Source: a virus (taxonomy: Duplodnaviria; Caudoviricetes). Taken from it: a stretch of 64,000 bases of DNA. The DNA is taken from IMG/VR virus record IMGVR_UViG_3300024346_000006; one strand, 5' to 3'. Positions 5,499-43,771 of this stretch are shown piece by piece. Made by a program: the position numbers and the translations under genes. The notes below the pieces were generated by a model. The model searched no databases. It was not told where the DNA came from and saw nothing but the letters and a program-made list of their open reading frames with translations. How positions within the stretch are numbered: position 1 is the stretch's first letter; each line of letters starts with the position of its first letter.

Positions 5499-5893
5499 TA
5501 TATCTCTCCTAGAATTTGTACTATGTGGCTATCTCTTCCAATCATACTACTATCAATAGTCTTACCATTAACTCCTTCAATTTTATTTGGCAATCTATTT
5601 AAAAAGTCCAAAAAAGTTGCAAGAATATAATGTTGTTCTTCATCAATTTTCAAAAACAAAACTCTATTACAAGGCAATGTATTTAATACATTTAGTAATA
5701 CTACTAAATGATTTATTATCAACCTTTCCTTCAAAACGCCTTTAGTATGATACTTATGGAAAAGTCTTTTGACATATTTTATTCTTTTCATGTCATCAAG
5801 AAACTCTTCCATATTATGACATTGAGGATTGTCATAATGTTTCATTTGATAATTGGCTACAGTTGTCTCCGTCAAATTTTCAAAATTTTCCAT
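5498..5893 (-). CDS. Conserved hypothetical protein of marine T4-like phages
   Basis: 131 aa; YDNPQC...EEFLDDMKRIKYVKRL...LKERLIINH pattern recalled from T4-like phages. Confidence 0.6.
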   Translation of the reverse strand: MENFENLTETTVANYQMKHYDNPQCHNMEEFLDDMKRIKYVKRLFHKYHTKGVLKERLIINHLVVLLNVLNTLPCNRVLFLKIDEEQHYILATFLDFLNRLPNKIEGVNGKTIDSSMIGRDSHIVQILGEI

Positions 5894-5914
5894 GTTATAT
5901 TTCTTTTTATTTTA

Positions 5915-6277
5915 TTATTGTGGTAAAACCTCTGTCAATTCAGTGATCAAATCTTCTTTCTTTTTTCTTCTGTCCAACTCAAGTCCATGGTCTCTACCAA
6001 GGGACTCTAATTCGATTTTAGTTAAATCACTTAATTCAACAGGCCGGTCTGATTCCTCAGAATCAGATTCTTCAGAACCAGATTCTGGTGTTTCAACAAC
6101 CTCTACATTTTTCTTCGCAGAAGATTTTTTCTTTGGTGGAGCAAGTTCATCAATCTTATCTTTTAATCCATTGATTTTTTTGTATACTTCACCAGTATTT
6201 TCGTTTTCCCATCCACGATTGGTTGCTACTGCATTTTTCATCCACTTCGCTGGGGTTGCCCATTTAGGTAATGACAT
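5915..6277 (-). CDS. Hypothetical protein with C-terminal Rho-N/HeH-like helical domain
   Basis: C-terminal LSDLTKIELESLGRDHGLELDRRKKKEDLITEL after an acidic/Ser linker. Confidence 0.55.
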   Translation of the reverse strand: MSLPKWATPAKWMKNAVATNRGWENENTGEVYKKINGLKDKIDELAPPKKKSSAKKNVEVVETPESGSEESDSEESDRPVELSDLTKIELESLGRDHGLELDRRKKKEDLITELTEVLPQ

Positions 6278-6289
6278 TTAAGTTCTCCT

Positions 6290-9200
6290 CTATTTTATAT
6301 AACTTGCAATTTTTTTGGCTCTGGGTTTATTACCGTATTTTTCCATCGCCATTTGTTCTACTTCTTTTTTAACTTGGTTCGTATTATATTTAGGGTTCAT
6401 TTCTCTAACGATTTCTTCCATTTCCTTTGCATCTTTTTTATCGGAATTTTCAATGATTATATTGATTTCGTTAATCTCTTCCCTTTTCATAATTTTATAT
6501 GCAAGATCAACTAACTTAGGCAATGGAAGTTTTTCCATCTTAGACTTATTAGAGTCGTTGACCTTATCGTATATTTGAACAACTGCAGATGCAGTAAACA
6601 AATCAACGATAGTCCCTTTAATTTTCTTTGCCTGTTTGTTATCAACGATATCTCTCATATCATCAATAATAGACTCTGCAAAAAGTTCGGCCTCTTCTTT
6701 TAGTCCAAGTTTTTTTGCAAGGTCTGCGGCATCTTTGCCCATTCCATAAGAGTTGTCTTTGATTCTCTGTTTAAACCAATTTTTAATTACTGGACGAGCA
6801 TCACCCTTTGGATTTTTCTTACCAGCATCCGCAAGATCGTCAAACAATTCATCGTCACCCAAAAGACTATAAAGTACCTCTGTTGCATCATCTCCCTCTT
6901 TTCCGAGAGTAATTGGTTTAGACATCAATTTCTTTAATGCAGTCACTTCGGATGACTTGTCAGCAAATGCCCAAGTACCTTCTTGCAAATCTTCATTTGT
7001 TAATTGGATTGCTTTGGAAATTGCAGGATCATCAGAAAGTCCTTTTGCAATCTTTTCAATTGTTCCGATAATCTGTGTCATATTACCACCCTTCCAACGA
7101 GGGTCATTAAGAACACCAAATGCCATCTTGTACTGTTTCGTAGAATACTTTTTCTCACTAATAGTTTCTAATTCTTCGAAAATTCTTGCTGCCTGTCCAA
7201 GAGATATAGTGTTAATCGCACCCATATCATCTAAAGTTCTAAACTTAATACTTGTTCTGTCTAGTTGTAGTTCGACATCATAAACTTTTCCGTTTTTACC
7301 ACGAATACTATAGATAATTCCATTTTTCATTTTTGGGCTACTACCCTTAATTTTTGGAGCACGTTCTGTAATTTCTTCTTTTATATCTACAGGCGAAACT
7401 GCCATATCTCCGAAAGCCATTGTAACTCCTCCATCTCTTTTGTACAAATATCTTTTAGCACTAGTAGGACTATCTTTTCTTGCCAGAGTAATTTTTTCTA
7501 CTGTGCCGTTACGAACCATGTTCTTAGACTTGACAATATACTCAATAAAATCTTTACCCTTCTCTAACGCAGAGTCATGTTTGATTTTAACAGTAGAACC
7601 CTTTTTTAGTTTATCAAAAACTCTAAGTAACTTAGGGTCGTTCATCTTCATACCTTCAACCATTTCTGCCTTTGAAGACGCCTCTTGGACTTCTTCCTGT
7701 TTATGTTTTGCTCTGATTGTTGCAAGAAGTTCTTCACCCATTCTCTTACCCTGAGATGCACTAACATTAGTTGGAAACTTATCCATATTTGATGGTAAAG
7801 GCCTTCCAATCATTTTTTCGGATTCTTTTTGGCTCTGTGGTTTTGTAAGAGTAACAATCTTTAGAGTATTCTTATTCTTGATCGACATAGGCGGCAGTTC
7901 TGCAGAAGCTCTAGACTGTTTAACACCCTTTTCGCTAGATGCCATCGCAACAACTTTGTTACCGTTTGCAGTATCAATCAGTGCATGGGTGTTTTTCATT
8001 GCTTCATTCATTTCTGGGGTTTCGTGAGAATATCCTAGTTTTTTCATGCGTTCATGATCTTCTGGTTTTTCTGCTTTGTAACCTTTACCTGTCTTTGGAT
8101 CATACATCATATGTGGTTTGAATTCGCCTTCACCAAGTTCTACTTCTTCTTTGTACATGTTCAGTTCATATCTCTTGTTGTCAAGATTTGCAACTTGAAT
8201 TTGTACACCTCTAGATTTACCCTTCTTATCAGTACCCATCAAACGATACGAATTAGTTTTTCCATTAGATGGTTTTTTAGGGCCCATAGCAACTTTATCG
8301 TCAATTTCATCTGGGTCGATTTCAATTCCAAGTTTTTTCTTTGCATGGTCATATGCATGTTTCATTGCACTAGAAAAGTCTTTGTGATATAACTCGTAAC
8401 CAGTCGCAGACTTTGCTTCATCGAACCGCATTGAGTGTTGCCCAGTACTTCGAACCTTCTCTGCATCCTTCATAGTCTTGTAAGGTTTACCTTGGTTTAC
8501 AAATTTACCCTTAGTCATAACCTGTACTTGGAAACCTTTGTTTGGGAGTTTATCAACACCCAACTCTTTACGAATTTTGTCTTGTGCTTTGTTACCCAAA
8601 TCAATGATACGAACCGTACCTTCTTTAGATGCTTCATCAAGATCTTCTCCAACAAGTCTTTTTGCATACGCATTAAACGACTTTTGATCTTCTACAGAGT
8701 CTTTACCTTTACCTAGACCTTGGAAAATTTCTCTCCATGCCTTTCCGTCATTCGTCTTTTTGAAGTATGCCTGCAGTTTAGCAGCAGTTTTTTTGTCAAC
8801 ATTTATAATTTCTTTATCATCATAAGATAGACTCCCAATTGCATGTTTACCAGCTCTAACTTCCCAACGTTCTTCTAAAATTTTATTAAAAATTTCTTCG
8901 GTGGTGATATCTTCTTTTCTATATCCAAGTTTCTTCAATTTCTCTTTAAATGCAGATTGTCTACCATCAAATTGCTTTTCGTTAGAAAGGTCTTTTTTAC
9001 CTTGATCTTTATACATCAATTTCTGGAGTTTTTCTTTAAAGGCCTTTGTTCTACCATCCAATTCTTGTTTTTTAATTTCGATAGAATCTTTTACAGCGTT
9101 TTCTAAATTTCCCCTGTCGTTACACATATCACATCCTTTACCTTCACACTTAACGCAAGGCATCTTTCCTTCTTTTACCGCCTTCGCAACTTTGTCAGAA

Positions 9201-9445
9201 ATAGTGACAGGATACTCCTTATCGCCGAATTTAAATTTTGTCTTGCCTGCTGATTTCGCAGCACTAGCAGCACCAATAAAGTCAGCAACATCTTCTTCTC
9301 TTACTTTTTTTGCAACATCCTTACTGATAGTGACAGGATACTCTTTATCGCCAAGTTTAAATTTTTTCTCACCAGCGGCCTGCGCTGCAGACGCTGCACC
9401 AATAAAGGCGGCAATGTCTTCAATTGTCATATTCTTTTTAAACAT
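6290..9445 (-). CDS. Large mosaic protein; probable internal-head polyprotein processed at [LIVMF]xE sites
   Basis: 1051 aa, K/E-rich; ~14 short modules separated by motifs such as EDLDE|A, EMNE|A, EEVQE|A, EEITE|R, EDLQE|G; late-promoter-like GATAAATA just upstream (~9468-9475). Confidence 0.7.
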   Translation of the reverse strand: MFKKNMTIEDIAAFIGAASAAQAAGEKKFKLGDKEYPVTISKDVAKKVREEDVADFIGAASAAKSAGKTKFKFGDKEYPVTISDKVAKAVKEGKMPCVKCEGKGCDMCNDRGNLENAVKDSIEIKKQELDGRTKAFKEKLQKLMYKDQGKKDLSNEKQFDGRQSAFKEKLKKLGYRKEDITTEEIFNKILEERWEVRAGKHAIGSLSYDDKEIINVDKKTAAKLQAYFKKTNDGKAWREIFQGLGKGKDSVEDQKSFNAYAKRLVGEDLDEASKEGTVRIIDLGNKAQDKIRKELGVDKLPNKGFQVQVMTKGKFVNQGKPYKTMKDAEKVRSTGQHSMRFDEAKSATGYELYHKDFSSAMKHAYDHAKKKLGIEIDPDEIDDKVAMGPKKPSNGKTNSYRLMGTDKKGKSRGVQIQVANLDNKRYELNMYKEEVELGEGEFKPHMMYDPKTGKGYKAEKPEDHERMKKLGYSHETPEMNEAMKNTHALIDTANGNKVVAMASSEKGVKQSRASAELPPMSIKNKNTLKIVTLTKPQSQKESEKMIGRPLPSNMDKFPTNVSASQGKRMGEELLATIRAKHKQEEVQEASSKAEMVEGMKMNDPKLLRVFDKLKKGSTVKIKHDSALEKGKDFIEYIVKSKNMVRNGTVEKITLARKDSPTSAKRYLYKRDGGVTMAFGDMAVSPVDIKEEITERAPKIKGSSPKMKNGIIYSIRGKNGKVYDVELQLDRTSIKFRTLDDMGAINTISLGQAARIFEELETISEKKYSTKQYKMAFGVLNDPRWKGGNMTQIIGTIEKIAKGLSDDPAISKAIQLTNEDLQEGTWAFADKSSEVTALKKLMSKPITLGKEGDDATEVLYSLLGDDELFDDLADAGKKNPKGDARPVIKNWFKQRIKDNSYGMGKDAADLAKKLGLKEEAELFAESIIDDMRDIVDNKQAKKIKGTIVDLFTASAVVQIYDKVNDSNKSKMEKLPLPKLVDLAYKIMKREEINEINIIIENSDKKDAKEMEEIVREMNPKYNTNQVKKEVEQMAMEKYGNKPRAKKIASYIK

Positions 9446-9473
9446 GAAAAATCTCCGTTTTTTTACTATTTAT

Positions 9474-11600
9474 CTATTTTTTAACCTTGGCCCACAAATC
9501 TGCATCACCAGTAGTTCTTGTTTTCCCACCTGTGATAAAAGAATTCACTCTCGCAAACGCCCATTGTTGTGGAGTAGTTCCCGGCCTGTGGCCACCCTTC
9601 CAGGCCGCCATACCTCTATCATATACCTTTTTTAGAATTTCATATGAAATACCAGATTTATCTGCCTTTTTAACTAATCCAGCAATCTTTGCTTCGTCTA
9701 ATGTCTCTGTACTATCTTCGCCAAACATCTGCTTATATTTCTTAGTATATTGTGAAGGTTTCGTTTCTGCATCTGTATCTCCAGGCGCTGGTTTATAAGA
9801 AGAATCTTTTCTATCTGGTTTAGATGCCTGTTTTTTAAAATGAGCAGCTCTTTTATCTTTAGTAGACTTGGACATCTCATCACCATCAGCATCTTTTGCA
9901 TAATACTTTTTTGGTTGAGATCCCTCTTTGTCTTTGATATCTGGGTCTTGAGTTGTCTTTCTTTCGTAAATAAATTGTGAAAAACTTTTTATATTCTCTT
10001 CTAAATCTTCCGCAGAATAACCAAGTTTCTTTTTTAGTATATTCATTGCAGTTGCCATCTTAACTTGCATCCACTCATCGCCGTATCTTTTCTTAAAATC
10101 ATCATCTGGCAAATCTTTTGCAATCTTTTCTAAATCCTTTTCTCTTTCTGGATTCATCTTAAAATCTTCTAGTTTATTTCCGTCCTTGTCGTACTTACCA
10201 GATTTCTTTTTCGCAATCGCAATCGCAGCCTGTTGAGCTCTAGATACACCTTCATCTTTTCCAGAAATCCTGTCACGGAAATCTTTTTTAATTTCTCCAT
10301 CTGTCACTTTCTCAACATCTTGAATAATCTTTGGATTTTTTAATAATTTGCGTAGGTTGTTTTTAACTTCCCCAGCACTACTTGCATCTATATAAAAAGT
10401 AGGTAATCCTTCAATATCTACTTGATAATTTGCTTCCTCAAGACTTTCATATTTTAATTCTTTACTTGATGTAGAAAAATTCTTTTTACGCATGATTGTT
10501 TTATGTACAACTTCAAACTCACCATTCTTGTAATTGATGACTACAGGCAGATTTAAATTAGTTGACATGTCTTTGAGAACTGCTTCGATATCAGGATTTG
10601 ACTTAATCTGCGAACCTTTTTTCTTTTGAATCTTTTTGAAAAACTTTTGAAGTTCTGCAACTTTAATCTCTGGGTCATTTCTTTTATCATTCATTCTGTC
10701 AACAAAATGTCTTGTAAATGTAACATCAATATCATACTTTGCAAGCATTCTATCTGCAAACTTTTCTAAATCATCAATTTGTTTTTGAGACACTTCCTCA
10801 TTATTGTATATTTTTTTATATACCGTATCATAATCATCATCAATACCAATTTTAAAATCTAACTCTTTATAAACAGATTCCATCAATATTTCATCTTCGA
10901 TATCTTCTACAATCTCTACAAATTCTGTTTCAATAAAACGTGAAAAGTCTGCATTGGTTGCTTCAAGAAACTCTAACAATTCTTCACTTATATTCATTGA
11001 CTTTCTGAGAGTATCAAATAATTTTTTTCCATTAGACTTTTCAAAGTCAGAAGGCAAACCAGATTTAAATCCGTTGAGTATTTTACCAGTTTTCGGGTCT
11101 TTCTCATCTTCATATCTATTTGCAGCTGCTGCTGCTCTCATTTTAGATGCTGACATACCAGCAACACCCTCTGCATCAGGATCTCTTTCCCCCGCAGAAA
11201 CTACTTCAATACCATCTTTAAAATCATAGAAACCATGGCTTCCTTCTTTACCATTATATTTGTTAAGTGTAGTTTTAAATTCTGTAACTCTATCTCCACC
11301 GACAACCATAATACATCTCTTATAACCCATGTCATATAACATAGGAGCAATCATAAATGCAGTCTTTGCATTTCTATTAGAGATGATATTGCGAGAATAC
11401 TTTGGAAACATCTTTTTCATAAAACCAACTTTAGTTTTATGATCTAAAGGATCTTTTTTGTCATTTTGTGAATGACTAGGAAATACCATAAAGTCGGCGC
11501 CTTCTTTTTTAGCAACCGATGCAAGTTTTTTTATTAATTTTTCGTGTCCTGTGGTTGGGGGATTAAACCTACCAAATGTAAAAATTACTGTATCTTTCAT
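9474..11600 (-). CDS. HxGH nucleotidyltransferase (cytidyltransferase-like) fused to several C-terminal modules
   Basis: TFGRFNPPTTGHEKL, VVGGDRV, VVSAGERDPD...MSASKMR; C-terminal YDRGMAAWKGGHRPG...WAFARVNSF domain. Confidence 0.8.
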   Translation of the reverse strand: MKDTVIFTFGRFNPPTTGHEKLIKKLASVAKKEGADFMVFPSHSQNDKKDPLDHKTKVGFMKKMFPKYSRNIISNRNAKTAFMIAPMLYDMGYKRCIMVVGGDRVTEFKTTLNKYNGKEGSHGFYDFKDGIEVVSAGERDPDAEGVAGMSASKMRAAAAANRYEDEKDPKTGKILNGFKSGLPSDFEKSNGKKLFDTLRKSMNISEELLEFLEATNADFSRFIETEFVEIVEDIEDEILMESVYKELDFKIGIDDDYDTVYKKIYNNEEVSQKQIDDLEKFADRMLAKYDIDVTFTRHFVDRMNDKRNDPEIKVAELQKFFKKIQKKKGSQIKSNPDIEAVLKDMSTNLNLPVVINYKNGEFEVVHKTIMRKKNFSTSSKELKYESLEEANYQVDIEGLPTFYIDASSAGEVKNNLRKLLKNPKIIQDVEKVTDGEIKKDFRDRISGKDEGVSRAQQAAIAIAKKKSGKYDKDGNKLEDFKMNPEREKDLEKIAKDLPDDDFKKRYGDEWMQVKMATAMNILKKKLGYSAEDLEENIKSFSQFIYERKTTQDPDIKDKEGSQPKKYYAKDADGDEMSKSTKDKRAAHFKKQASKPDRKDSSYKPAPGDTDAETKPSQYTKKYKQMFGEDSTETLDEAKIAGLVKKADKSGISYEILKKVYDRGMAAWKGGHRPGTTPQQWAFARVNSFITGGKTRTTGDADLWAKVKK

Positions 11601-12271: not shown

Positions 12272-12814
12272 TTACCAGAAAAAATTACCACCACCACTTA
12301 ATCCAAGTTGTTTTGCATACTTTGGAAGTCTACATGCCCAATAGCCTGGTTTTGTCTTATCGTTTTTCTGATCGCAATTATGTCTTGCAACAAAACTCTT
12401 TCTTGCCTCTGGGTCATTAATTTTTGCAGTCAATCCTGTTGTATCCCCAAATGAAATCTTAATTACATTTCCTTTATCATTTTTAACATATACATAATAC
12501 TTTTTCTTACCACCCCTCTTTGGGGAATTCAATTCTACATCTTCTTCCATCAAGGGGCAGTCTAAAGGAACATATACGGCATCAAATTCTTGTTTCTCAA
12601 ACATCGCCCACTCACCAATATCTGTTTGTAACATTTCAATGTCGTAAAGGTCAAACTCGAGCTTACCTTCTTCATATAATTTTCTCGCCACTCTAAAGGT
12701 TTTGTAAAAATTATTTGAACCTAGACGAAAGACATTATCAATTAGTGGTATTTCATTCTGTCTATGATACAACACCATTTCTTCTATATTTTGAAACTGT
12801 TTATAAGTTTTCAT
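12272..12814 (-). CDS. Hypothetical two-module protein with capsid-targeting-like N-terminus
   Basis: Start re-assigned to 12814 (MKTYKQFQNIEE; ATGA overlap with upstream stop); C-terminal KKYYVYVKN...SFGD...RKSFVARHNC...GYWACR domain. Confidence 0.65.
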   Translation of the reverse strand: MKTYKQFQNIEEMVLYHRQNEIPLIDNVFRLGSNNFYKTFRVARKLYEEGKLEFDLYDIEMLQTDIGEWAMFEKQEFDAVYVPLDCPLMEEDVELNSPKRGGKKKYYVYVKNDKGNVIKISFGDTTGLTAKINDPEARKSFVARHNCDQKNDKTKPGYWACRLPKYAKQLGLSGGGNFFW

Positions 12815-13314
12815 CTCAATAACTTCTCCAATTCTCTCATAGTCTTCGCTGGATTGATATGACGAATACCAATACCACCTTTCGCTTCCCATTCTTTTAT
12901 ATTCTTAGGATAATCATCAATTAGAATATTTGGTTTATCATTTGTTGTAGCAAATTTCTGTTTATCTTCTCGTTGGACTAAATGTATTTTTCCATTCAAT
13001 CTCAAATTTTTTGAAATCCAAGCTCTTTTACCTTTTTGCGAATTCGAATCTCTTTTGGAATATGCAGATAAAATGTTTGCATTGTACTTGTTTAACATTT
13101 TCCACATCTTTTCCGAGCCTGACATCCATGGTAGGGTGTGCCAAAAATCTTTCTTGGATTTAATATCTTCCCATCTTTCTTCTTTGTCGGTTGATGCAAA
13201 GTCTTTATTAAATGCGGTTGTATAACCGCCTGTGAAATTACAAAGAACTTCGTCCATATCACAATAAATTTCTGGCATTTCTTTTTCAAAAATATATTGA
13301 TTGAAAGTTTTCAT
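12811..13314 (-). CDS. HAD-family 5'(3')-deoxyribonucleotidase-like phosphatase
   Basis: IYCDMDEVL (DxD), ILSA, ILIDDYPKN; N-terminus MKTFNQYIFE. Confidence 0.85.
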   Translation of the reverse strand: MKTFNQYIFEKEMPEIYCDMDEVLCNFTGGYTTAFNKDFASTDKEERWEDIKSKKDFWHTLPWMSGSEKMWKMLNKYNANILSAYSKRDSNSQKGKRAWISKNLRLNGKIHLVQREDKQKFATTNDKPNILIDDYPKNIKEWEAKGGIGIRHINPAKTMRELEKLLR

Positions 13315-13604
13315 TTCATTAAACCTTTTATTACTTTTAGTGCCATCTTACCATCTGGGTGATGCGGATTAATACTGACTTCATCCCCATTAACAAAATC
13401 AGAAATACTAGCTGACTTGCCAAGAGCAGTAATTGCTTTGTGTAGTGGATCTTTTGGATCGTATCTTCGTTCAAAATTGGGTTTTCCTCTTAGTTCGACC
13501 CAGCTCTTTTCTTTAGTATCCCACATCTTAAGTACATCTTGATCTTTACCACGAACCAATTTGAGCTTAATACCTTCAGAAAGATATTGAGTAAAACCTA
13601 ACAT
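13311..13604 (-). CDS. Hypothetical protein with capsid-targeting-like N-terminus
   Basis: 97 aa; MLGFTQYLSE leader. Confidence 0.6.
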   Translation of the reverse strand: MLGFTQYLSEGIKLKLVRGKDQDVLKMWDTKEKSWVELRGKPNFERRYDPKDPLHKAITALGKSASISDFVNGDEVSINPHHPDGKMALKVIKGLMK

Positions 13605-14548
13605 CAGTCATCGTCCATTTCGTCCATGATACTGTAATCATAAACAGCGTCGATGTAATCCTTTGCCTTCGTCACTTTAGAAACTACCCACGCCTCCATT
13701 TCATATTCATTATTTTGTGGATTATCGACTTCTTCCATAAGTGCCTCTGCAAGTTCTGTGGACTTATTAGAAAGAATGATGAGTTGTCTCAACATCATCT
13801 CCAAACTATCCTGTGCAAACTCTGCGTCTTCTATAAATAGTTCTTCTTTAATTCCTCTTGCGGCCTTTTCTGCAGAAATCCACTTTTTAGCGACAGTTTT
13901 AGTTGGTGATTTCTTTGTCCACGCTCCAATAGTTCTATATGCCCTCATAACATCTCTTTCAAAGTCTGCGCCGTCAGAGTTATCAATTACAAACATTTTT
14001 TCCTTAAATGCAGACTGAAATTTACCAATGTTTCCTTGAACACCTTTCCACATAGATTCAACTTCATTGTCTGGAAGACTTCTCGCTCTTAATCTATTTC
14101 GGTTTAATGCGGTGTCTAAATCGGTATTGACAAAAATCATTGCGGTTTCGTAACCCATCGCCTCTAACTTGTCTTTTTGTTTTTTAATTTTATCATAATC
14201 TTTTCCAGTACCATCGACAACAAGTCCAAGTCTACCCCTCATATATCCCGCCTGTTGCGCCGCAGTAAGTGCTTTTGCTTTACCTCTTACTTGTTGTCCA
14301 AGGTCAGAGAAAATATCATCTGGATTTCCTTTGTCCAGTCCCGACTTATCCAACGCCCTTTCAAATGCAGGGTCGGAGTTTACAACTCTCAATCCAAAAG
14401 AAGTAAGTGCAGTTCTACCTACAATAAAAGATTTACCAGAACCTGGCCCACCGGCGAGGAACACCGCCTTAAAGATGCCTGGGTCATTGATACCTTCTTC
14501 TAAAGTTTCTTCATTTCTAAGATTTTCGATTATATTTCTTATATCCAT
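13604..14548 (-). CDS. P-loop kinase (AAA_33/zeta-toxin/PNK-like) with extra C-terminal helical module
   Basis: LAGGPGSGKS Walker A, LVVDGTG, ALNRNRLR lid; start re-assigned to 14548 (MDIRNIIE), just after upstream stop. Confidence 0.8.
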   Translation of the reverse strand: MDIRNIIENLRNEETLEEGINDPGIFKAVFLAGGPGSGKSFIVGRTALTSFGLRVVNSDPAFERALDKSGLDKGNPDDIFSDLGQQVRGKAKALTAAQQAGYMRGRLGLVVDGTGKDYDKIKKQKDKLEAMGYETAMIFVNTDLDTALNRNRLRARSLPDNEVESMWKGVQGNIGKFQSAFKEKMFVIDNSDGADFERDVMRAYRTIGAWTKKSPTKTVAKKWISAEKAARGIKEELFIEDAEFAQDSLEMMLRQLIILSNKSTELAEALMEEVDNPQNNEYEMEAWVVSKVTKAKDYIDAVYDYSIMDEMDDD

Positions 14549-14549
14549 T

Positions 14550-15803
14550 TTACTTGTCCCATGCCTTTGCTGCAGTAAAGTTATTATAACTAAATTCCAT
14601 TCGATCAACAATTTTCACGGCATTACCCTTTGTATCAATTGCAACATAACCTTCTGGATTTGTCACTTCATAACCGTTTTCTGTACGAACAAAAATCTGC
14701 GTTAACTGTTTAACACTATTTAGTTTATTTATAATAAGAGATTTAGCACCAATTAATTCTTCCATAAAATCAACAATTGAATATGCAACACTGTCTAATT
14801 TAATTAATTGTTTTACTGCATCATCTCTAATTCTTTCTTTATCTTTTCTTGCACCTTCTGTTTTTAACTTTGCAATAACTTTTTCGTCAAAAAACTTTTT
14901 AACATACATCGAATAGTCTAAATTTTTCATGTTCTTTGTAGAAATATTCTGTCCTTCACGAATATATGTGTTGAGATAGGTTTTGAAACTTGCACCAGCA
15001 AGTCCTTTAATAAAAATTTTGTTTTGGAGTTGCATAAATGTTTTAAAATCGTTTGATCTGATTTTCTTAAATTTTCTACCAACTTGAGACATTTGCCCAT
15101 CGAGTGTTTTTAGTTCGGACGAAGTAAATTTTGCAGAACCAGAAACATCTTTATATGTTGCATCATCCATCCACACAGATGATGTTTTCTTTAATCCAGA
15201 TATATTCACACCAAAAGAGGCCGTCATCGATGGTAAATCTTTTCCAGAATATGTTGTATGCCAAACAACACCAATCTTTGCAGCGTTGATTGCCTTTCCT
15301 AAATCAGAATCTTTCTGAACTGCATACATCAATGTGTTTTGTTGGAATGTTAGATATGTCTCGCCATCAAGTGTTTTTTCTGACACATCATCAGTAAACA
15401 TTAAGTCTCCTTGAATAACACCCTTAATTCCCAATTTAGAAAATTCTCGATATGCAACAGTAAATTTTGATTTTAATGCGGGACTTAGTTTTATATCTGC
15501 ATCGATCTCTGCAGTACTTTTATATAATAGTGGAGTCTCATTAAATACAGATTTTTTTGCGATAAAGAATTTTCCATCACTTGGATCTATTCCAGCGAAT
15601 ATAGCAGGAGCACCGTCCCACTTAACTGTCATGTTTACTTTAGAATCTGAATTTCCTGCCAACATGTCTCTTAAAGATAAAAGAAATTGTACAGCGGCAC
15701 GGCCACCATCGATTCCAAAGTTGAGAATTTCATCTTCAAGGTGTTCTAAGTGTAGATTTTTTCCACCTTTTGATTCAGTAAGATATTTTTTAAATGATTG
15801 CAT
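14550..15803 (-). CDS. DUF6267-like protein with ATP-dependent ligase (Rnl1-like) motifs
   Basis: VKWDGAP (KxDG), IQGDLMF, PEGYVAI, AVKIVD; N-terminus MQSFKKYLTE. Confidence 0.65.
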   Translation of the reverse strand: MQSFKKYLTESKGGKNLHLEHLEDEILNFGIDGGRAAVQFLLSLRDMLAGNSDSKVNMTVKWDGAPAIFAGIDPSDGKFFIAKKSVFNETPLLYKSTAEIDADIKLSPALKSKFTVAYREFSKLGIKGVIQGDLMFTDDVSEKTLDGETYLTFQQNTLMYAVQKDSDLGKAINAAKIGVVWHTTYSGKDLPSMTASFGVNISGLKKTSSVWMDDATYKDVSGSAKFTSSELKTLDGQMSQVGRKFKKIRSNDFKTFMQLQNKIFIKGLAGASFKTYLNTYIREGQNISTKNMKNLDYSMYVKKFFDEKVIAKLKTEGARKDKERIRDDAVKQLIKLDSVAYSIVDFMEELIGAKSLIINKLNSVKQLTQIFVRTENGYEVTNPEGYVAIDTKGNAVKIVDRMEFSYNNFTAAKAWDK

Positions 15804-17195: not shown

Positions 17196-17203
17196 TATTT
17201 ATA
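17196..17203 (-). promoter_or_regulatory. T4-type late promoter TATAAATA heading the 17.2-3.5 kb locus
   Basis: Exact TATAAATA on minus strand 32 nt upstream of start at 17164. Confidence 0.8.
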
Positions 17204-40052: not shown

Positions 40053-41432
40053 TTATACAGAATTGATATTGTCTACACGGAAGATTCTGTAGTAGGTATT
40101 TGAACGAGCTGTAAGAGCACCGTTACCAACTGTTGTACCTTCTGCATATGGGTTAGCAACCAATCCATAACGAGTCTTGAACCCGATTTTTGGTTGGAAA
40201 CTGTTCTCACCAACTGCACGAACCATCTGCAATGGAACGTATGGGCAATAGAAGAATCCAGCATCATATGGAGATGTACCTCTGAATCCAACCATTACGA
40301 AGTCGGTATTGTTGGCAGACGAGAAGTATGGGTCAATGTATACTTTGAAACGTCCGTTAAGTATTCCAGCAAATGTCGAACCAGTGTCATCAACATTCAA
40401 ACCTGTTGACATTTGTGGGTTGTACTCAAGAAGACCTGCCATTGCAAGTGCGGAAGCAACGTCTGAAGAACAAACGATTACGTTACCCTTACCACGGCGA
40501 GTTTCTTTAGCAATTGTGTTTGCTTCTCTCTCAATGTGGAACATAAGTCCTTTGAACTTCTCAACACTCCAACGTCCGTCAGCGTCTGTTGCAAGGTCAT
40601 ATACACCTGTGTTAGTTACTTGAGTTTGAGCACCAAGTTTTGCGATACCGTACATTGTGCGAAGAACTTCACGGTTAATTTCTGCAGTAATTTCTGTAGA
40701 AAGAATTGTTGAAAGTTCTGCTTCTGCGTCAAGTCCATGAACCGCTTTCAAGTCTTGTGAAAGTTCAGTTGTGTACTCAGCTTTCAATGCTCTTGTTTTT
40801 GCGGTTACTGATACTCTCTCAATTGAGAATGCCATTTGGTTGAAGTGACCGTCTGCAGTCATTGTAGAACCGTTACCTAACAATTCACCCTGTGCAGTTG
40901 AGCCAGGAATACCAGTTGTTACTGTTGAACCAGTTTCATCCAATGAACCAGTAGCAATAACAGCACCAGCGAATGGATCTGTACCTGAGTGATTTGGTCC
41001 TGCAACATCACCAGAAAACTCTGTGTTTGCTTCATTGAATGATGCTTCTGCACCAGCCTGATTGGTATAACGTGAACGCATCGCAAAGATAAGTCCAGTT
41101 GGTCCTGTCATTGGTTGTACACCACAAAGGTCATATGCCATTAGGTTTGGCACGGTTCTACGAAGCATAGAAATGATGACTGGGTCTGCATACTGGATAT
41201 TACCAGCAGAAGAACCTGTTGGTGCAACACTTGTTGGTGATTCGTTAAGTTGATCCAAAGAAGAACGTCCTAAGGCGTTTTCTTTGATTGTGGCTTGTTC
41301 TGTATTCTCAAGAAGAATAGCAGTTACTGCCTTTCTGTATGGGTCTGTGATCTCGGCATGTTCACCATGGTCAAGAACGGGTGCCCACTTTTCTTTTAAT
41401 TGTTGAACAAAGTTCTCGTTATAGTCGTGCAT
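40053..41432 (-). CDS. gp23: Major capsid protein
   Basis: KWAPVLD, GVQPMTGPTGLIFAMR, RALKAEYTTELSQDLKAVHGLDAE, FYCPYVPL, FKTRYG. Confidence 0.99.
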   Translation of the reverse strand: MHDYNENFVQQLKEKWAPVLDHGEHAEITDPYRKAVTAILLENTEQATIKENALGRSSLDQLNESPTSVAPTGSSAGNIQYADPVIISMLRRTVPNLMAYDLCGVQPMTGPTGLIFAMRSRYTNQAGAEASFNEANTEFSGDVAGPNHSGTDPFAGAVIATGSLDETGSTVTTGIPGSTAQGELLGNGSTMTADGHFNQMAFSIERVSVTAKTRALKAEYTTELSQDLKAVHGLDAEAELSTILSTEITAEINREVLRTMYGIAKLGAQTQVTNTGVYDLATDADGRWSVEKFKGLMFHIEREANTIAKETRRGKGNVIVCSSDVASALAMAGLLEYNPQMSTGLNVDDTGSTFAGILNGRFKVYIDPYFSSANNTDFVMVGFRGTSPYDAGFFYCPYVPLQMVRAVGENSFQPKIGFKTRYGLVANPYAEGTTVGNGALTARSNTYYRIFRVDNINSV

Positions 41433-41471: not shown

Positions 41472-41479
41472 TATTTATA
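41472..41479 (-). promoter_or_regulatory. T4 late promoter (gp23)
   Basis: TATAAATA. Confidence 0.8.
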
Positions 41480-42649: not shown

Positions 42650-43285
42650 TTAAAGTTTTGACACAAAATTTTTGAAAACTCTCAGTTTTGTTTCTTCTAA
42701 TTGTTGCCTTTTGGCCTTTTTAAGAGAGTCTTGGTATTCTGCAATTTGAGCTTCTTTAATAATACCGTTGTCCCAAACCCACTCTCTACCTTCCATAATA
42801 CCTTCTACAAATGCATTGGGTGCGGAAGGGTCTGCAACAATGTCAGCAGCAGTTGCAAGATAAAAGTCATCTTGAACAACATTTGCACCACCTGACTGTT
42901 TTACACTACCCATACCTCTAGAAGAAACACCTAAAGATGCACCTTCTTTGATGAGGTTGCTAACGATAGCACCATAAGGAGTATCAGTCATAATTTTTGC
43001 TTTACCAACAAAGTTATCACCATCTCTCTTAAGTTCTTTAATCATATGGGAAACTCTTTCCAGATTGATAGTTGGGCCTTCTGGGTGTCCAAGTTCTCCA
43101 AATGCTCTATTTTTTTGAATGTAGTTTTCATTATATCTTTGAACTTCTCTTTCGAGAACTTCTGTAGGATACACTCTACCATTTCTATTTTTGACATTTG
43201 ATTGTAAGAAAATGCCTTCAATGAAAAGGTCTTTTCCTTTGGATTCTACCAGAATGTCTTCAACTACTTCCGTAATTAGTTTCAT
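42650..43285 (-). CDS. gp21: Prohead protease
   Basis: MKLITE, NRNGRVYP, GELGHP, GVSSRGMGS, DIVADPSAPNA. Confidence 0.97.
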   Translation of the reverse strand: MKLITEVVEDILVESKGKDLFIEGIFLQSNVKNRNGRVYPTEVLEREVQRYNENYIQKNRAFGELGHPEGPTINLERVSHMIKELKRDGDNFVGKAKIMTDTPYGAIVSNLIKEGASLGVSSRGMGSVKQSGGANVVQDDFYLATAADIVADPSAPNAFVEGIMEGREWVWDNGIIKEAQIAEYQDSLKKAKRQQLEETKLRVFKNFVSKL

Positions 43286-43548
43286 ATTCCTGTCCTTCTT
43301 TGAAGTGATCTTCTTCTACGGAGATTTGCAATATTAACCTTGCCTTTTCTTTTCCTTGCGGAACGAGTGTTTCTAATACTCATTTTTCGCAGAGCGCCTG
43401 GATTAATCTTGACCTCTCTCTTGTTAATTACTTTATAACCGGCCTTATCAGACACATATTTAATTTTTCTTTTACCTTTTCTGATGACTATTTTTCTTTT
43501 GACTGCTTCGTCAAGGTCATCTTCCAAGAATTCTAAAAAAGAATGCAT
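43282..43548 (-). CDS. gp68: Prohead core protein gp68-like
   Basis: Basic, position before gp21; leader MHSFLEFLEDDLDE|A. Confidence 0.7.
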   Translation of the reverse strand: MHSFLEFLEDDLDEAVKRKIVIRKGKRKIKYVSDKAGYKVINKREVKINPGALRKMSIRNTRSARKRKGKVNIANLRRRRSLQRRTGI

Positions 43549-43567: not shown

Positions 43568-43771
43568 TTATTCTTCACCATCAACATCACTATATGCAGG
43601 ATTGTTAAACATTGTTTTTGCAAAATCCTGCTTATAACTATTGATTGCTTCCTGTCTCTTTACGTTAAGTACTGATTTAATATCATCAGTAACAACGGAC
43701 GCTTTTCCTAAAACAGAATTATCTACAATGTCTATTGTTATATTATTTATATTATCTTCATTCTCTGTCAT
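43568..43771 (-). CDS. gp67: Prohead core protein gp67-like
   Basis: Small acidic ORF directly after portal gene. Confidence 0.6.
   Translation of the reverse strand: MTENEDNINNITIDIVDNSVLGKASVVTDDIKSVLNVKRQEAINSYKQDFAKTMFNNPAYSDVDGEE

Follow-up and report, generated by a model that had tools for sequence, protein, structure and literature searches.

Can a single phage gene encode a whole string of small proteins that are cut apart in the prohead? This question is raised by a gene of an uncultured marine T4-like myophage (IMG/VR virus record IMGVR_UViG_3300024346_000006), whose closest isolates are Pelagibacter phage Mosig and Methylophilales phage Melnitz. The whole stretch of DNA that was analysed, here called the window, is 64,000 nucleotides long. 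The gene lies on its minus strand (6290..9445, stop codon included) and encodes a protein of 1051 amino acids, P0001. Searches of the whole protein against Pfam (E up to 1) and PHROGs yielded no family. P0001 is almost certainly a beads-on-a-string protein, in its architecture as well as in its evolutionary behaviour, consisting of ~13 small (40-100 amino acids), independently folding, lysine-rich modules with short acidic linkers between them. These linkers end in hydrophobic-x-Glu, which is followed by Ala, Gly or Ser. The comparisons described below suggest that many small proteins probably reach the capsid as products of this one gene.

Modular composition of P0001

The initial annotation of the gene quoted 14 candidate cleavage sites, and each of these strings is indeed present once in P0001. 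The Glu residues preceding the cut (position P1) are amino acids 50/51, 92, 192, 271, 343, 439, 481, 588, 597, 694, 764, 822, 924 and 993. The same annotation delimited about 14 modules at these sites. The number given here is ~13. Site 993 is located in a confidently predicted helix and is therefore probably not a joint; an unlisted site at 571 probably is one. The segments were also described as unrelated to each other. Not all of them are: one unit is present twice, as residues 9-50 and 51-92, and module 2 is internally repeated.

The modules are described here in protein order, with window positions on the minus strand and an arrow at the bond proposed to be cut. Module 1 (amino acids 1-92; 9170..9445) is made up of two copies of a 42-amino-acid unit with sites VRE↓E (50) and VKE↓G (92), and is the N-terminal 'bookend' of its lineage. 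Module 2 (93-192; 8870..9169) combines a CxxC...CxxC knuckle with a repeated helical unit and ends in ILEE↓R. Module 3 (193-271; 8633..8869) ends in VGE↓DLDE↓A, and module 4 (272-343; 8417..8632), which is missing in L007 and relocated in L008, in RFDE↓A. Module 5 (344-439; 8129..8416), ending in EEVELGE↓G, has a small alpha/beta fold and is the bead with the widest distribution. Module 6 (440-481; 8003..8128) is a unit of 42 amino acids, present four times in tandem in P0084 and homologs of its type, and ends in EMNE↓A. Module 7 (482-571) is followed by spacer peptides 572-588 and 589-597 (together 7655..8002), the bounds being MGE↓E, VQE↓A and MVE↓G. Module 8 (598-694; 7364..7654) has an all-beta fold, shared with a cluster of viral proteins of 95 amino acids, and ends in IKE↓EITE↓R. 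Module 9 (695-764; 7154..7363) ends in TISE↓K, and the helical modules 10 (765-822; 6980..7153) and 11 (823-924; 6674..6979) end in EDLQE↓G and LKE↓EAELFAE↓S, respectively. Modules 12 and 13 (925-1051; 6293..6673) are joined by one confident long helix, module 13 being the conserved C-terminal 'bookend' ...KKIASYIK. Double sites in P0001 enclose short spacer peptides.

Several modules carry a Met one or two residues past the joint, in the contexts A-M-K-N, G-M-K-M and G-K-M (amino acids 482-485, 598-601 and 93-96; window positions 7991-8002, 7643-7654 and 9158-9169). Some homologs or fragments start at such a post-joint Met (MKMNDPK...). It may be a relic of start codons lost in gene fusion.

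Exchange of whole modules between related phages

A word-index search yielded 519 homologs of 578-1154 amino acids. Exhaustive phmmer searching extended the family to 3,721 clusters at 50% identity (1,485 at E<=1e-10), comprising proteins of 122-1184 amino acids with modules at any position. When 120 homologs were mapped by BLAST, pieces of P0001 were found to recur in altered orders and combinations. P0055, for example, contains pieces of P0001 in the order 599-693, 502-571, 820-918, 760-823 and 268-437. Variation in the order and combination of modules among other phages, which had been predicted, was thus found by BLAST, by phmmer and in a pair of near-identical phages; full-length colinear homologs sharing one fold were not seen among the homologs compared.

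Whole modules are exchanged at the joints. In a first set of 89 architectures, 54% of 548 breakpoints lie <=4 amino acids from one of the 14 sites, and in an independent set of 143 representatives 55.5% of 681 do so, the sites making up 12% of the length of P0001. This clustering was matched by 0/20,000 random placements (p<5e-5 in both protein sets), and p was 0.0009 when compared with random Glu residues. Two phages with flanking genes that are 90-93% identical in DNA over several kilobases show the same process at close range, the interior of the gene differing by gains, losses and reordering of whole modules. One of them misses modules 4, 6 and 7; in the other, modules 2 and 4 are swapped in order and several others are missing. 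The edges of the DNA blocks in these phages, at amino acids 100, 129/196, 269-272, 340-344, 435, 596, 690, 819 and 922-925, correspond to sites 92, 192, 271, 343, 439, 597, 694, 822 and 924. Junction codons within the P0001 gene have <=9-10 identical bases in common; what is conserved in the joint is therefore the protein sequence, not a DNA repeat. On the same grounds, shuffling driven by long repeats in the DNA of the joints was rejected within this gene.

The ends of the proteins follow a different rule. In P0003-P0121 they come in matched types: a start with module 1 pairs with the ...KKIASYIK end, and a start with MTRYSKTMSE↓A pairs with an end of the ...TRIAQLQLQIAK... or ...TDTGKEVTPV...NKV type. 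Between these conserved 'bookends' the interior varies freely.

The joint motif and the specificity of the prohead protease

The joint retains its motif whatever module lies next to it. Beside foreign neighbours its consensus is K-E-E-V-E-L-D-E, followed by A or G after the cut. Among 526 distinct upstream contexts of 11 modules, [LIVMF]-x-E occurs within -6..+2 amino acids of the module start in 84% (background 17%) and [LIVMF]-x-E[AGS] in 48% (background 6.5%). On the C-terminal side of modules the values are 77% and 39%, with the same backgrounds. A further extension of the joint by an upstream element, [KR]-L-G-Y, showed no clear enrichment (23% vs 17%) and was dropped. Family-wide, [LIVMF]xE[AGS] is 2.1 and 2.4 times as frequent as in shuffled sequences in the two protein sets, with 1.0 for a control with Asp at P1. 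When Glu at P4 is included (E[LIVMF]xE[AGS]) the enrichment rises to 8.6 and 10.2 times the shuffled expectation, with 0.9 for the reversed motif.

The T4 prohead protease gp21 cuts after L-X-E or I-X-E, and Asp at position 10 of the T4 leader blocks processing; positions 4 and 7 of this leader serve targeting and positions 8 and 10 processing (PMC9026906). The joint motif fits this reported specificity, both in the Glu-Ala bond and in that Asp is no substitute for Glu. The window encodes the corresponding head proteins: matches to Peptidase_S77 (E 4.8e-37), T4_CASP (E 1e-60), Gp23 and Portal_T4 identify gp21, gp22, gp23 and gp20. The gp21 gene (42650..43285, minus strand) encodes the proposed cutter. 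A motif of the joint type is also present in the phage's own head proteins. The initial annotation pointed to DQLNE↓S as candidate maturation site of gp23, and it is found there at amino acids 60-64 (41241..41255, minus strand). A gp68-like small core protein of 88 amino acids, encoded between gp21 and gp20 (43282..43548, minus strand), starts with MHSFLEFLEDDLDE↓A, a leader directly followed by a joint of the string type (DLDE↓A). Among the 62 minus-strand open reading frames (ORFs) of the window, the three most enriched in [LIVMF]xE[AGS] are gp21, P0001 and gp22. The strongest enrichment, that of gp21 (6 vs 1.2 expected), suggests self-processing, as reported for related proteases.

Beads as separate genes

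The same units occur as beads in some phages and as separate genes tagged with a leader in others. Standalone ORFs of modules with capsid-targeting-like leaders, another expectation of the initial annotation, do exist in related phages. Module 5 is found as complete genes of 94-95 amino acids on 65 and 26 contigs, which reach 148 kb in length; all stop exactly at the module end, ahead of the linker, and one starts with MKSFKHMMYE. In the syntenic late locus of a phage with standalone module 5 the genes are separate and leader-tagged: the leaders are MKSFKGFYLTE↓A, MNFTDFITE (DUF6267), IKNFKSYLVEE↓A (nucleotidyltransferase), MNLYE↓A (DUF5824, 72 amino acids), MKKLTQITE↓A (a mini-string of 395 amino acids) and MKSFKHMMYE (module 5). 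The cultured phage Melnitz (MZ577097.1) has the same layout, with short strings of 462 and 251 amino acids at 5683-7827, both annotated as 'hypothetical protein'. These hold modules 8, 6, 5 and 10, and the 462-amino-acid string starts with MTRYNKTMSE↓A. Many homologs of P0001 likewise start with a capsid-targeting-like leader (MTRYSKTMSE↓A, MDSFKKYINE).

Two further domains, a kinase and DUF5824, show the same duality, occurring in some phages as beads and in others as genes of their own. The window has a separate kinase gene, its leader ending in ETLEE↓G, with 67% identity to the kinase bead of P0047, P0050 and P0064. A 708-amino-acid ORF upstream of P0001 has as its last bead, after TLDE↓A, a DUF5824 unit that shares 80% identity with the corresponding bead of P0095 and P0104. 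A Pfam scan of ten homologs yielded only the zeta-toxin/AAA_33 kinase and DUF5824, and no peptidase domain. An embedded processing peptidase was also sought in P0001 itself by Pfam (E up to 1), without result.

Predicted structure

Two regions of P0001, 332-600 and 585-1051, were folded with AlphaFold using alignments of colinear homologs. The model of 332-600 (mean predicted local distance difference test (pLDDT) 67, predicted template modelling score (pTM) 0.36) shows three small folds. Its stretches with pLDDT<50, 332-349, 433-440, 480-482 and 558-573, lie between these folds and contain sites 343, 439, 481 and 571. In the model of 585-1051 (mean pLDDT 72, pTM 0.32), the low-confidence stretches 585-600, 691-694 and 815-824 contain sites 588, 597, 694 and 822. 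Together, linkers with pLDDT<50 house 8 of the 11 modelled sites, i.e. 7 of the 10 listed initially. Sites 764 and 924 are in coil with a pLDDT of about 58-62. Unlisted hydrophobic-x-Glu motifs at 635, 999, 1011 and 1015 are in confident strands or helices. The expected picture of independent folds with disordered linkers was thus recovered for small separate folds with low-confidence linkers at sites, with 993 as the exception.

Foldseek against the PDB gave no match at E<=0.001. In the wide VIA-align search, the 332-600 model reached a Z of at most 4.8, to generic PAS/cystatin-like two-layer folds, from which no family was assigned, and an Atlas feature search with residues 1-271 gave no usable match. 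Matches in BFVD, AFDB and Atlas were limited to homologs without a name and to standalone beads, apart from a weak fold similarity to one protein whose name refers to a 'large polyvalent protein-associated domain'. In these fold searches, standalone viral proteins of 81-95 amino acids match modules 8 and 12. Small ORFs considered as standalone genes for module 8 were mostly fragments, and only the 95-amino-acid Atlas cluster was retained.

Genomic setting

The P0001 gene is located ~31 kb away from the head gene cluster and sits between genes for replication and genes for nucleotide metabolism. As far as can be read from its surroundings, it is probably part of a late, hypervariable operon for capsid cargo. 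The chain of genes running down to P0001 is headed by a putative late-promoter box, TATAAATA, at 17196-17203 on the minus strand. This sequence has 13 copies on the minus and 2 on the plus strand of the window. Most copies (minus strand, 39448-63914) are directly upstream of head or tail genes, for example at 41479 before gp23 and at 43751 before gp20, a placement compatible with T4-type late promoters. A second candidate late promoter, GATAAATA (9467..9474, minus strand; read from sequence), matches the T4 late-promoter box at 7 of 8 positions; it lies ~20 nucleotides upstream of the P0001 start codon and overlaps the stop codon of the upstream gene.

This upstream gene (9474..11600, minus strand) encodes a second string, of 708 amino acids. 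It has an N-terminal cytidylyltransferase-like nucleotidyltransferase domain, middle parts of unknown nature, the sequence NIKSFSQFIYE↓R, the joint TLDE↓A and a DUF5824 bead (9477-9692). NIKSFSQFIYE↓R is an internal capsid-targeting-like sequence. In other phages the nucleotidyltransferase and DUF5824 are separate leader-tagged genes.

Further upstream, on the same strand, are genes for an NT5C-like phosphatase (12811..13314) with a T4-like capsid-targeting leader, MKTFNQYIFE, a protein of 97 amino acids (13311..13604; leader MLGFTQYLSE↓G), a zeta-toxin/AAA_33-type P-loop kinase (13604..14548; leader MDIRNIIENLRNEETLEE↓G) and a DUF6267 protein (14550..15803; leader MQSFKKYLTE↓S). Three or four genes of the chain start with leaders of 10 amino acids resembling the T4 capsid-targeting sequence, including the internal start MKTYKQFQNIEE. 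The region 12272-15803 of the minus strand looks like a locus of capsid cargo enzymes.

Relation to known systems

The closest known system to P0001 is the cargo of T4 internal proteins and Alt. In T4, the capsid-targeting sequence of IPI, IPII, IPIII and Alt is removed by gp21, and the ip locus is polymorphic in T-even phages (PMC3012670, PMC9026906). Both cases concern a T4-type phage with Peptidase_S77, genes that lie outside the head cluster (late in T4, putatively late here), proteins that are small and basic, and cargo that varies strongly between related phages. Also shared are leaders of ~10 amino acids in which position 4 is aromatic, position 8 hydrophobic and position 10 Glu; they are present on neighbouring genes in the window and on many homologs. 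With a net charge of +37 and 15.8% Lys, P0001 resembles the T4 internal proteins in being basic overall; this is compatible with DNA-bound cargo and equally with a counter-ion or assembly role. Unlike in T4, many cargo units are here in one frame, with the protease-type site as internal joint. The P0001 chain also lacks an N-terminal leader, its modules have no detectable homology to the T4 internal proteins, and its cutting and packaging are predictions.

Polyvalent proteins of phages and conjugative elements contain up to 15 unrelated domains per polypeptide (Iyer, Burroughs, Anand, de Souza, Aravind 2017; PMC5512222). Many unrelated domains in one chain and variable architectures are common to both, P0001 having ~13 modules that are shuffled in its homologs, and for both delivery together with DNA is predicted, with later processing into units. 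P0001 homologs contain a zeta-toxin-like kinase, which is also among the domains described for polyvalent proteins, and the weak fold match mentioned above points the same way. Polyvalent proteins, however, are assembled from large enzyme domains of known type, with an embedded metallopeptidase (MPTase) as the presumed cutter (PMC5512222), whereas P0001 has beads of 40-100 amino acids of unknown fold, no embedded peptidase, and uniform joints for a separate head protease.

Head and ejection proteins of the giant phages phiKZ, 201phi2-1 and SPN3US are cleaved after Glu at a short motif, with several sites per protein; these phages package and eject many proteins and have gp21-like proteases (PMC5694885, PMC9026906). 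Their extra sites are mostly in long discarded propeptides that leave one mature product (PMC5694885), while the P0001 segments are folded, exchangeable modules. RNA-virus polyproteins resemble P0001 by analogy only, in being a single translation product with uniform short sites at domain borders for a virus-encoded protease. There is no evolutionary relation; unit order and content are not fixed in P0001, and its units would be accessory cargo, not replication machinery. What appears to be new in P0001 is the fusion of many T4-type cargo units with a protease-type site as the joint. Full-text searches of the literature yielded no description of such polyproteins, of the P0001 gene family or of DUF5824.

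Proposed processing in the prohead and alternative explanations

These data are best explained by gp21 processing the P0001 polyprotein in the prohead, a reading that we hold with moderate confidence. The bead chain would enter the prohead core, where the T4-type prohead protease gp21 (Peptidase_S77) would cut after the Glu of each linker. Cutting would free a set of small basic internal proteins, which would be kept with the packaged DNA and probably be ejected with it. We infer entry, cutting, retention, ejection and any role in the host from sequence; an effector or anti-defence role of the modules is likewise a prediction.

Several observations weigh against this reading. The bare motif is near chance in P0001, with 27 occurrences of [LIVMF]-x-E compared to ~21 expected from composition, and the case rests on the comparison with relatives. 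[LIVMF]-x-E[AGS] reaches only about twice chance (9 vs 4.4 expected, z = 2.4). The N-terminus, MFKKNMTIED... (MFKKNMTIEDIAAF), is not a canonical capsid-targeting sequence and the first 25 amino acids contain no hydrophobic-x-Glu. In the P0001 lineage, module 1 at the start replaces the leader and module 13 is always at the end, and one may guess that either of them serves as capsid address. Site 993 lies inside the confident long helix that links modules 12 and 13, and sites 50, 92, 192 and 271 are outside both folded regions. No recognised fold or function was obtained for any module in the Foldseek/PDB and VIA-align searches. An acidic tail would stay on each freed bead, for which no purpose is apparent, and the conserved linker could be retained for spacing or as a recombination joint.

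One alternative is an uncut multidomain protein, in which the acidic linkers are flexible spacers between small lysine-rich domains, conserved as points where recombination is safe for the folds, and the likeness to gp21 sites is incidental. The near-chance count of the bare motif and the leaderless start of P0001 would agree with this, any domain shuffling would put breakpoints at linkers, and N4-type virion polyvalent proteins are packaged unprocessed (PMC5512222). We consider it unlikely nonetheless. The joints are conserved at the protein level while their codons share so few bases, and a plain spacer does not explain the strict Glu (not Asp) at P1, the hydrophobic residue at P3 and Ala, Gly or Ser at P1' (the residue after the cut). 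It also leaves unexplained that the joint motif ends the leaders of separate genes and matches the gp23 and gp68-like sites, and that double sites surround short spacer peptides.

Cutting by gp21 might, on the other hand, yield disposable core or scaffold filler like T4 gp22, gp67 and gp68, which builds or sizes the prohead and whose pieces mostly exit or stay only as DNA counter-ions, without effectors directed at the host. Its motif density places P0001 alongside gp22 and gp21, and its beads are basic and lysine-rich; in T4 heads DNA phosphates are contacted only by lysines of internal proteins (PMC3012670), and T4 IPIII affects head assembly (PMC9026906). No bead of P0001 has an enzyme signature in Pfam. 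The T4_CASP scaffold domain was however not found in P0001 by Pfam, and the gene is outside the head gene cluster. The folded modules turn over very fast between near-identical phages, a behaviour that is typical of conflict genes but not usual in assembly parts, and homolog beads and separate genes of the locus include the zeta-like kinase, the nucleotidyltransferase and the NT5C phosphatase. Such a filler thus appears quite improbable, more so than an uncut protein. Least probable is that P0001 is processed outside the prohead, whether by a host protease, some other phage protease or, following ejection, in the next host. Polyvalent proteins have been proposed to be processed after delivery (PMC5512222), and a leaderless P0001 would suit a route other than targeting to the prohead core. 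On the other side, no peptidase domain is present in P0001 or the scanned homologs, and the motif agrees with the Peptidase_S77 encoded in the window and with the presumed substrates of this enzyme there.

Implications

Should the chain be both cut and packaged, a single gene would deliver a dozen small proteins together with the DNA. Phages of abundant ocean bacteria could then alter the cargo they inject simply by swapping modules at a standard joint, and the T4 concept of capsid targeting and internal proteins would be widened from single genes to a combinatorial polyprotein. The joint motif and the leader together would serve as a search rule for injected proteins in metagenomes, and thousands of small protein families of unknown function would become candidates for counter-defence. 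The phage Melnitz, which has an OM43 host, is a cultured relative that makes the bead-string idea directly testable. More tentatively, and in our view slightly less probable than its opposite, the prohead-protease site may be a universal joint in marine T4-like phages, by which small flanked proteins are strung together, moved or dropped, or stand alone behind a leader. The thousands of bead clusters would in that case form a large, fast-evolving and uncharted pool of co-injected proteins, for anti-defence, host takeover or nucleic-acid repair, in myophages that are among the most abundant of the ocean.

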